From contig OX597837.1 of the NCBI GenBank assembly GCA_951406725.2, positions 37,944,001-38,008,000 on the forward strand: DNA of 64,000 nucleotides, in the 5' to 3' direction. This DNA comes from Octopus vulgaris (lineage: Eukaryota). Of this stretch, positions 50,066-50,148 are shown in pieces. The position numbers were made by a program, and so were the translations under genes. Every line of letters begins with the position of its first letter. Position 1 is the first letter of the stretch. The notes below the pieces were generated by a model. That model did no database searches and was not told the DNA's origin. It worked only from the letters and a program-made list of their open reading frames with translations.

Positions 50066-50148
50066 CTTTCGACATATGTTTCGAAGACAACATTGGTTTT
50101 ATTCCAAAGGAATAAACGGTGTAAAATGCAATCTTCTCATCAGGAAAG
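50066..50148 (-). ncRNA. Canonical minimal type I hammerhead ribozyme motif
   Basis: CTTTC-CTGATGA-GAAGATTGCATT..TTTATTCC-TTT-GGAATAAA..AATGTTGTCTTC-GAAA-CATATG-TC/GAAAG. Confidence 0.9.

Follow-up and report, generated by a model that had tools for sequence, protein, structure and literature searches.

The long-arm hammerhead motif at an Octopus vulgaris locus comes from the end repeat of a truncated Penelope-like element of Hydra-like sequence

The hammerhead ribozymes of metazoan Penelope-like elements (PLEs) are type I motifs which reside in both pseudo-LTRs (pLTRs) of the element (Cervera and de la Pena, 2014; PMC4209133). Helix I is short, helix III is a small palindrome, helix II comprises 7-8 bp with a small loop, and an extra nucleotide sits between A9 and G10.1. 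Mostly they occur as single motifs in truncated copies. Monomers of these pLTR hammerheads were inactive and dimers weakly active, and action as dimers was proposed (PMC4209133). Members of the Hydra clade of PLEs (Craig et al., 2021; PMC8557442) possess a GIY-YIG endonuclease at the C-terminus, the motifs DKT and LYRDD, CxxC and CxH around the endonuclease residues E and N, a CxCX5C linker and a 3' hammerhead, insert at (TA)n and mostly measure under 3 kb. The linker was proposed to form a zinc finger which directs PLEs to (TA)n (PMC8557442). The helix II arms of the published Hydra-clade hammerheads span 12-26 nt (26 Hydra rows, File S2 of PMC8557442), and the short-arm descriptor of that study has a spacer of 7-17 nt. 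In PAc, the Poseidon element of Anolis carolinensis, the hammerhead is located near the border of pLTR and ORF and overlaps the start codon. Cleavage is assisted by the protein, and reverse transcription starts at two internal sites, 111-118 nt into the ORF and beyond; the two internal 3' ends define a tail, and the targets are AT-rich (Frangieh et al., 2024; PMC11167929).

Long helix II arms have precedents in unrelated lineages. The Selaginella element PLE-X1_sMoe has an arm of about 53 nt, flagged as deviating in File S2 of PMC8557442; it is a precedent for length. The avocado sunblotch viroid carries type I hammerheads which act as dimers, helix III being weak and helices I and II poorly delimited (PMC6155905). 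In the sections of PMC8557442 and PMC6155905 which deal with PLE-X1 and the viroid, respectively, no analysis of arm covariation was seen. An annotation of octopus repeats reports recently active Penelope families, the sections on these leaving ribozymes unmentioned (PMC13282606). A full-text literature search found neither a long-arm family nor a loss of the linker described; Lunse et al. 2017, who reportedly dealt with dimeric PLE hammerheads, and Repbase/Dfam were outside this search and may contain either. A tiny palindromic helix III is already known from PLE hammerheads. New are a conserved arm of 54-55 nt, a series of palindromes with the central bases UA, UG and CG, and a PLE lineage which lacks the linker and still ends in (TA)n.

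The window analysed here is a stretch of 64,000 nucleotides from Octopus vulgaris (contig OX597837.1, positions 37,944,001 to 38,008,000), and all positions are counted from its first letter. An earlier note on this DNA had predicted a minus-strand hammerhead. Geometry, strand and predicted cut site were all reproduced, with every part of the motif where that note had placed it. The features of the locus are:

50066..50148, minus strand: type I hammerhead motif (helix I of 5 bp, CUGAUGA, 54-nt arm, GAAA, ACAUAUGU, GUC)
50083..50136, minus strand: long helix II arm of 54 nt; pair probabilities 0.73-1.0 in the 83-mer
50072..50079, minus strand: 8-nt palindrome, the predicted partner being the same stretch of a second ribozyme (self-duplex -7.0 kcal/mol, and covariation)
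50017..50252, minus strand: 3' UTR/pLTR up to the first preferred 3' end; 90.4% identical to the near-full element at locus L061, 92-95% to the best 40 genomic matches
50365..50413, minus strand: remnant of this PLE copy which lies furthest 5' (3' UTR); 89.8% identical to the L061 element
50253..50364, no strand assigned: piece of another, very abundant short repeat (alignment gap against L061, self-matches in locus L001, joints)
49948..50016, no strand assigned: (TA)n/(TTTA)n tract which lies within the window copy and coincides exactly with the first preferred 3' end
49780..49947, minus strand: tail, i.e., the element's 5' UTR continuing to the second preferred 3' end; 88.7% identical to positions 179-346 of the L061 element

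Helix I pairs CUUUC (50148-50144) with GAAAG (50070-50066). CUGAUGA is at 50143-50137 and GAAA at 50082-50079, followed by C 50078, AUAU, G 50073, U 50072 and C17 at 50071; the predicted cut is between 50071 and 50070. The helix II stem has 12 positions, 6 bp, a U.U mismatch and 5 bp, and includes two G-U pairs. An internal loop (8x3) comes next, and then, at 50116-50098, a hairpin of 8 bp (UUUAUUCC/GGAAUAAA) capped by a 3-nt loop. The earlier note had described helix III as a tiny C-ATAT-G palindrome. A palindrome it is, yet the core pair A15.1-U16.1 makes it 8 nt long (ACAUAUGU); helix III has 2 bp in a monomer and 8 bp in a dimer. The type I core CUGANGA...GAAA...UH with A15.1-U16.1, the three helices and an open-ended helix I are all present. 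With the hammerheads of PMC4209133 the motif shares this type, the short helix I, the small palindromic helix III and, in the window copy, a G10.1-C11.1 pair; here, too, single motifs in truncated copies predominate. Unlike these it has no extra nucleotide between A9 and G10.1, and the simple helix II is replaced by an arm of 54-55 nt with its 12-position stem, internal loop and inner hairpin.

A chance origin of the motif is excluded. A descriptor requiring at least 5 bp in helix I and at least 4 bp in helix II, with an arm of up to 120 nt, found two sites in the window compared to two in 200 block-wise dinucleotide shuffles combined (mean 0.01). Two results speak against the designation 'fully canonical': the Rfam hammerhead models gave no match at E<=10 on a 221-nt stretch around the motif, and a 141-nt region around it folded no better than shuffles (z -0.15). 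The Rfam miss is probably caused by the long arm, and a library match is not a defining feature. For the whole window, the 150 of 718 Rfam matches listed contained only microsatellite-driven miRNA matches. Concerning the tertiary contact of loop I with loop II known from canonical motifs, relatives possess an internal loop in helix I and the long arm displaces loop II; no contact was identified.

The motif is the pLTR hammerhead of a 5'-truncated PLE copy. The window contains the final ~400 bp of the element plus a tail, and the truncation point is near 50413. The short-repeat piece at 50253..50364, which we take to be SINE-like, stands in place of about 34 nt of the PLE. TA/CA repeats come after the tail. 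Compared with the majority of 30 copies, 8 of 226 positions differ and the core is untouched. The tract at 49948-50016 interrupts the copy, with the tail behind it; of 70 copies just one other is interrupted at this point (by 20 nt). Slippage or a two-step insertion may account for it. A covariance model of the clade detected no site in the window besides 50148-50066, and no second hammerhead of this family was found within the 64 kb. Pfam searches with 140 of the 180 non-repetitive ORFs of the window recognised no host exon or gene context and returned three sub-threshold matches (an RT fragment at 31.1-31.7 kb, TMIE and DUF2457). The first of these, an RVT_1 fragment at 31111-31674 on the plus strand (E 1.7e-4, below the cut-off), is probably a LINE remnant. 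The minus strand at 52620-51900 carries a decayed PLE remnant: a half-core (GAAACATATGTA) at 52446, after which come a tail and (TA)n, and, at 52269-52036, a stretch which matches the endonuclease weakly (E 9e-4). Contigs covering the motif come from four runs presumed to be RNA and four of unknown kind, in four organisms; contigs indicate neither ends nor strand nor level.

The genome search for the parent element which the earlier note had suggested identified a PLE and a near-full copy of it at L061, and related copies keeping the core were found, as that note had anticipated. Searching the octopus's own genome with the motif region yielded 2140 first-look candidates; the best 40 of these, the window itself aside, are 92-95% identical. 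An exact 23-mer over the 3' half of the motif has 681 copies in the genome versus 0 for a reversed control. The family copies have a common 3' end, whereas their 5' break-off points vary. Upstream of the 3' UTR, on the same strand, the flanks of the copies encode a GIY-YIG-type domain and then a reverse transcriptase (RT). The L061 element begins with a truncated piece in inverted orientation; after it come the first repeat (193 bp, with a hammerhead), a 5' UTR, an ORF, the second repeat, again with a hammerhead, and (TA)n. Its hammerheads are 3176 bp apart, and the 193-bp direct repeats are 96.4% alike; the ORF has one frameshift and YHDD in place of the sisters' LYRDD. This layout corresponds to the arrangement drawn for PLEs in PMC8557442. 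Full elements show a hammerhead, an ORF with RT and C-terminal GIY-YIG, and a second hammerhead at a spacing of 3.2-3.7 kb. The attributes of a PLE are present, i.e., a single ORF combining RT with a C-terminal GIY-YIG domain, hammerhead-bearing pLTRs, an inverted 5'-truncated piece and an optional tail.

A protein from O. sinensis used as query found a 98% match in the genome and 15715 first-look candidates. The sister families recovered in this way have RTs 67-73% identical to that of the window's family. Four loci (L157, L158, L163, L164) contain two hammerheads each, unbroken ORFs of 895-903 aa and end repeats 98-100% identical; by these sequences they are young sister PLE families. The database homologs carry the names of Octopus bimaculoides, O. 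sinensis and Argonauta. The cephalopod database proteins P0002, P0011 and P0018, named 'GATA zinc finger domain-containing' or 'myb-like', are PLE RTs.

The endonuclease residues Y, YIG, R, H, E and N are conserved. A structure model of the domain has a pLDDT of 79.8, and the top eight Foldseek rows obtained with it are T4 EndoII, Hpy188I and I-TevI (E 0.015-0.43, weak, none below 0.001), which are GIY-YIG nucleases. Pfam gave a sub-threshold GIY-YIG match only (E 0.022) and no RT match, and a sequence search of the PDB with the element protein gave no match. Features of the Hydra clade recur in the octopus proteins: DKT instead of DKG (QSDKT in 8/8 ORFs covering the site), LYRDD in the sister ORFs, CxxCxxE in 9/9 and CxH in 7/9 of the ORFs covering them. 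By eye, they resemble the Hydra rows in the supplement of PMC8557442. The elements share with this clade the C-terminal GIY-YIG domain, the 3' hammerhead and insertion at (TA)n as well. The CxCX5C linker is absent from all 48 octopus linkers read and present in 9/9 full-length database homologs. Its place is taken by an insert rich in Asn and Ser together with a segment free of Cys; in the window's family the insert is poly-Asn, encoded by an AAT repeat. The N-terminal motif reads RIRWL, with RWL instead of the RWK of the Hydra clade (PMC8557442); homologs have RWK, RWR or RWE. Between GIY and YIG, where Hydra elements are without a CCHH finger, the sisters have one Cys, and in the window's family some copies have a second Cys and others a Ser. 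The ORF has about 900 aa, and the unit of 3.2-3.7 kb is longer than most Hydra elements (PMC8557442).

Judged by its protein sequence the lineage is Hydra-like. We classify it as such and not as a member of the clade because the CxCX5C linker is missing. In an 18-row tree which is midpoint-rooted, has no outgroup and contains only unnamed homologs, all octopus ORFs group as a single clade (100/100). An assignment to Neptune or Nematis was rejected; it requires DKG and a CX2-5CxxC finger, and DKT without linker cysteines was found. Hydra-1_Obim from O. bimaculoides has a different, short-arm hammerhead and retains the linker cysteines (PMC8557442). A fragment of a different Hydra-type PLE with an intact CxCX5C linker is also present in the O. 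vulgaris genome (L093:1960-2613, plus strand).

The long arm of helix II is kept by compensatory changes across the sister families. Of the sister loci which extend into the 3' UTR, nearly all have a hammerhead whose 55-nt arm differs in sequence; in a few the arm is deleted to 47-49 nt, and in two loci (L172, L174) an ORF-linked scan detected no hammerhead. Twenty representatives, hand-picked from 34 sequence classes, were aligned. The core is invariant in all 20 rows except for N7 and N17. In this alignment, 90.7% of the cells are paired, compared with 37-47% when partners are slid. Both sides changed in 10 of 28 pairs, seven of these in the 12-position stem; a shuffle control for this alignment overstates significance because the rows are related. 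RNAalifold unaided recovered 11 helix II pairs, six of them with double changes, and did not recover helix I, helix III or the inner hairpin.

Two unrelated long-arm hammerhead families are present in this single 64-kb window. The second is represented at 41119-41021 on the minus strand, within a repeat unit of about 41535-40880, and has 1599 candidates. It features an 8-bp helix I, a 61-nt arm, a 12-nt palindrome with compensatory changes among copies, and GUA. Its copies run into (TA)n some 130-140 or 230-245 nt beyond the cut. In the window copy there is a partial tandem of 162 bp, and the palindrome contains a mismatch. No parent ORF was found within 1.5 kb of 30 copies. At G000:C3:181366355-181367690 (L076, L079, L082) three copies of this family stand head-to-tail with a 487-bp period and a hammerhead each, a retrozyme-like array. 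Five further loci (L135, L160, L161, L163, L170) contain hammerhead-like motifs of other repeat families with arms of 12-29 nt and palindromes of 4-12 nt.

The palindrome of the PLE hammerhead was surveyed in 99 distinct copies which had not been fetched by a palindrome-containing pattern. Sixty have ACAUAUGU, 21 ACAUGUGU, 14 ACACGUGU and 4 another state. When the palindrome is left out of tree building, the two central bases run from UA via UG to CG on the resulting tree. The changing bases are adjacent and therefore can pair only between two ribozymes, not within one strand. Hence this covariation supports the dimer model. It represents two steps of one lineage, not many independent events. 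Independent cases are added by the unrelated 41.1-kb family, in which 36/38 palindromes, of six different sequences, are fully self-complementary. The suggestion of the earlier note that dimerisation may be needed is supported by the covariation. The covariation agrees with the published view of inactive monomers and weak dimers, and suggests that PLE hammerheads pair through their palindromes.

The insertions have two preferred 3' ends, one about 46-70 nt and the other about 190-225 nt beyond the cut. At either of these, 61/70 family copies and 50/55 sister rows run into (TA)n. The family set, but not the sister set, was selected in part by similarity to a query whose end is the TA tract; among the five sisters which do not run into (TA)n, four are 5' repeats leading into the ORF. 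Therefore, the (TA)n next to the window motif is an insertion junction. The earlier note had correctly located this tract about 45 bp away and missed both the parent element and the junction. Linker-less copies end in (TA)n, so targeting survives without the proposed finger. As in PAc, two internal 3' ends define a tail, the targets are AT-rich and the hammerhead is close to the pLTR/ORF border. Here, however, the 5' UTR contains both 3' ends, separated by about 155 nt, and the ATG follows about 256 nt after the cut. In all five two-ribozyme elements the DNA continues upstream of the first cut for another 104-774 nt. Since insertions span the cut site, so does the RNA which is copied, be it a circle formed by ligation or a tandem transcript left uncleaved.

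We consider it probable that the motif derives from the end repeat of a Hydra-like PLE, the full element likely self-cleaving as a pair and the lone 5'-truncated copy probably being idle. Two palindromes, from one or two transcripts, would form a single 8-bp helix III, and both cores would cut after C17, possibly with aid from the element's protein. Ligation would turn the unit-length RNA into a circle. The GIY-YIG domain would nick (TA)n, and reverse transcription would start internally at one of the two sites and run across the cut site. Internal start and run-through would yield truncated copies like that in the window as well as pLTR copies of more than unit length. Yet cleavage, as a dimer and with protein assistance, might merely trim or degrade the element RNA or regulate translation, and the template might be an uncleaved tandem transcript with no circle involved. 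The cut site is spanned by every insertion examined, which fits such a template as well as a circle. Ribozyme mutants of the anole PLE insert unchanged in vitro, and the RNA-seq data reported for this element have no reads which start or end at the cut (PMC11167929); cleavage may therefore lie off the insertion pathway. Further, Naiad PLEs multiply without canonical hammerheads (PMC8557442). On the other hand, 5' extents which vary from 104 to 774 nt are simply explained by copying round a circle, and a core strictly kept over about 30% RT divergence must matter to the element. We regard the uncleaved template as possible, though somewhat improbable. A more speculative idea, which we ourselves think unlikely, is that the 55-nt arm is a docking site by which the element's protein turns on paired cleavage and is kept beside the RT start sites; (TA)n targeting would then arise from the nuclease core and the RNA (ending ...UUA/UA), not from a zinc finger, and the lineage would have dropped the finger and gained the arm.

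The window copy had been put forward as the best candidate for an active ribozyme. This assessment was not supported: the copy is a 5'-truncated relic with no partner in the 64 kb, its predicted P(helix III) as a monomer is 0.02, and a distal helix I is absent. It is, nevertheless, more intact than the other hammerhead-like site of the window at 41.1 kb with its palindrome mismatch. In monomer predictions its hammerhead fold is 2-8 kcal/mol above the minimum, and the addition of 40-nt flanks lowers P(helix I) from 0.89 to 0.04. In long context the values of relatives are low too (family median 0.25, sisters 0.01; medians 0.0-0.25), so the flank argument against the window copy is weak and not specific. 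Under a hammerhead constraint 6/6 relatives form a distal helix I stem of 6-11 bp which the window copy lacks. On these grounds the lone copy is probably idle as long as it finds no partner in trans. It is improbable that the motif cleaves as a monomer, the long helix II docking with a helix I internal loop so that a 2-bp helix III suffices, in which case the window copy could cut host transcripts. In relatives helix I is indeed extended and contains an internal loop, and among the type I hammerheads of invertebrates some in which helix III has 2 bp and a tetraloop cleave well alone (PMC7229834). A monomer, however, has no need of the self-complementarity which was held through UA, UG and CG, and the low P(helix III), the missing distal helix I and the lack of a recognised host exon in the window ORFs searched speak against it. 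That the motif belongs to a non-coding tandem retrozyme or satellite, or to a domesticated host ribozyme, instead of an autonomous retrotransposon is extremely improbable: most copies were seen without an ORF, and animal retrozymes have been proposed to derive from PLE end repeats (bioRxiv 10.64898/2026.07.22.740005), but the copy flanks pass unbroken into endonuclease and RT, the loci examined contain no short tandem array of the PLE family, the window copy matches dispersed copies and is interrupted by other repeats, and at the level of the family the coding element at L061 refutes this reading.

One decayed copy matters little; the family to which it belongs is useful for open questions. 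Short-arm descriptors and Rfam would miss the long-arm class, and counts of hammerheads in cephalopods are therefore probably too low. The linker-less lineage, with its young and unbroken sisters, offers a test bed for the zinc-finger idea and for the role of the ribozyme. The family also provides evolutionary evidence that PLE hammerheads pair via their palindrome.
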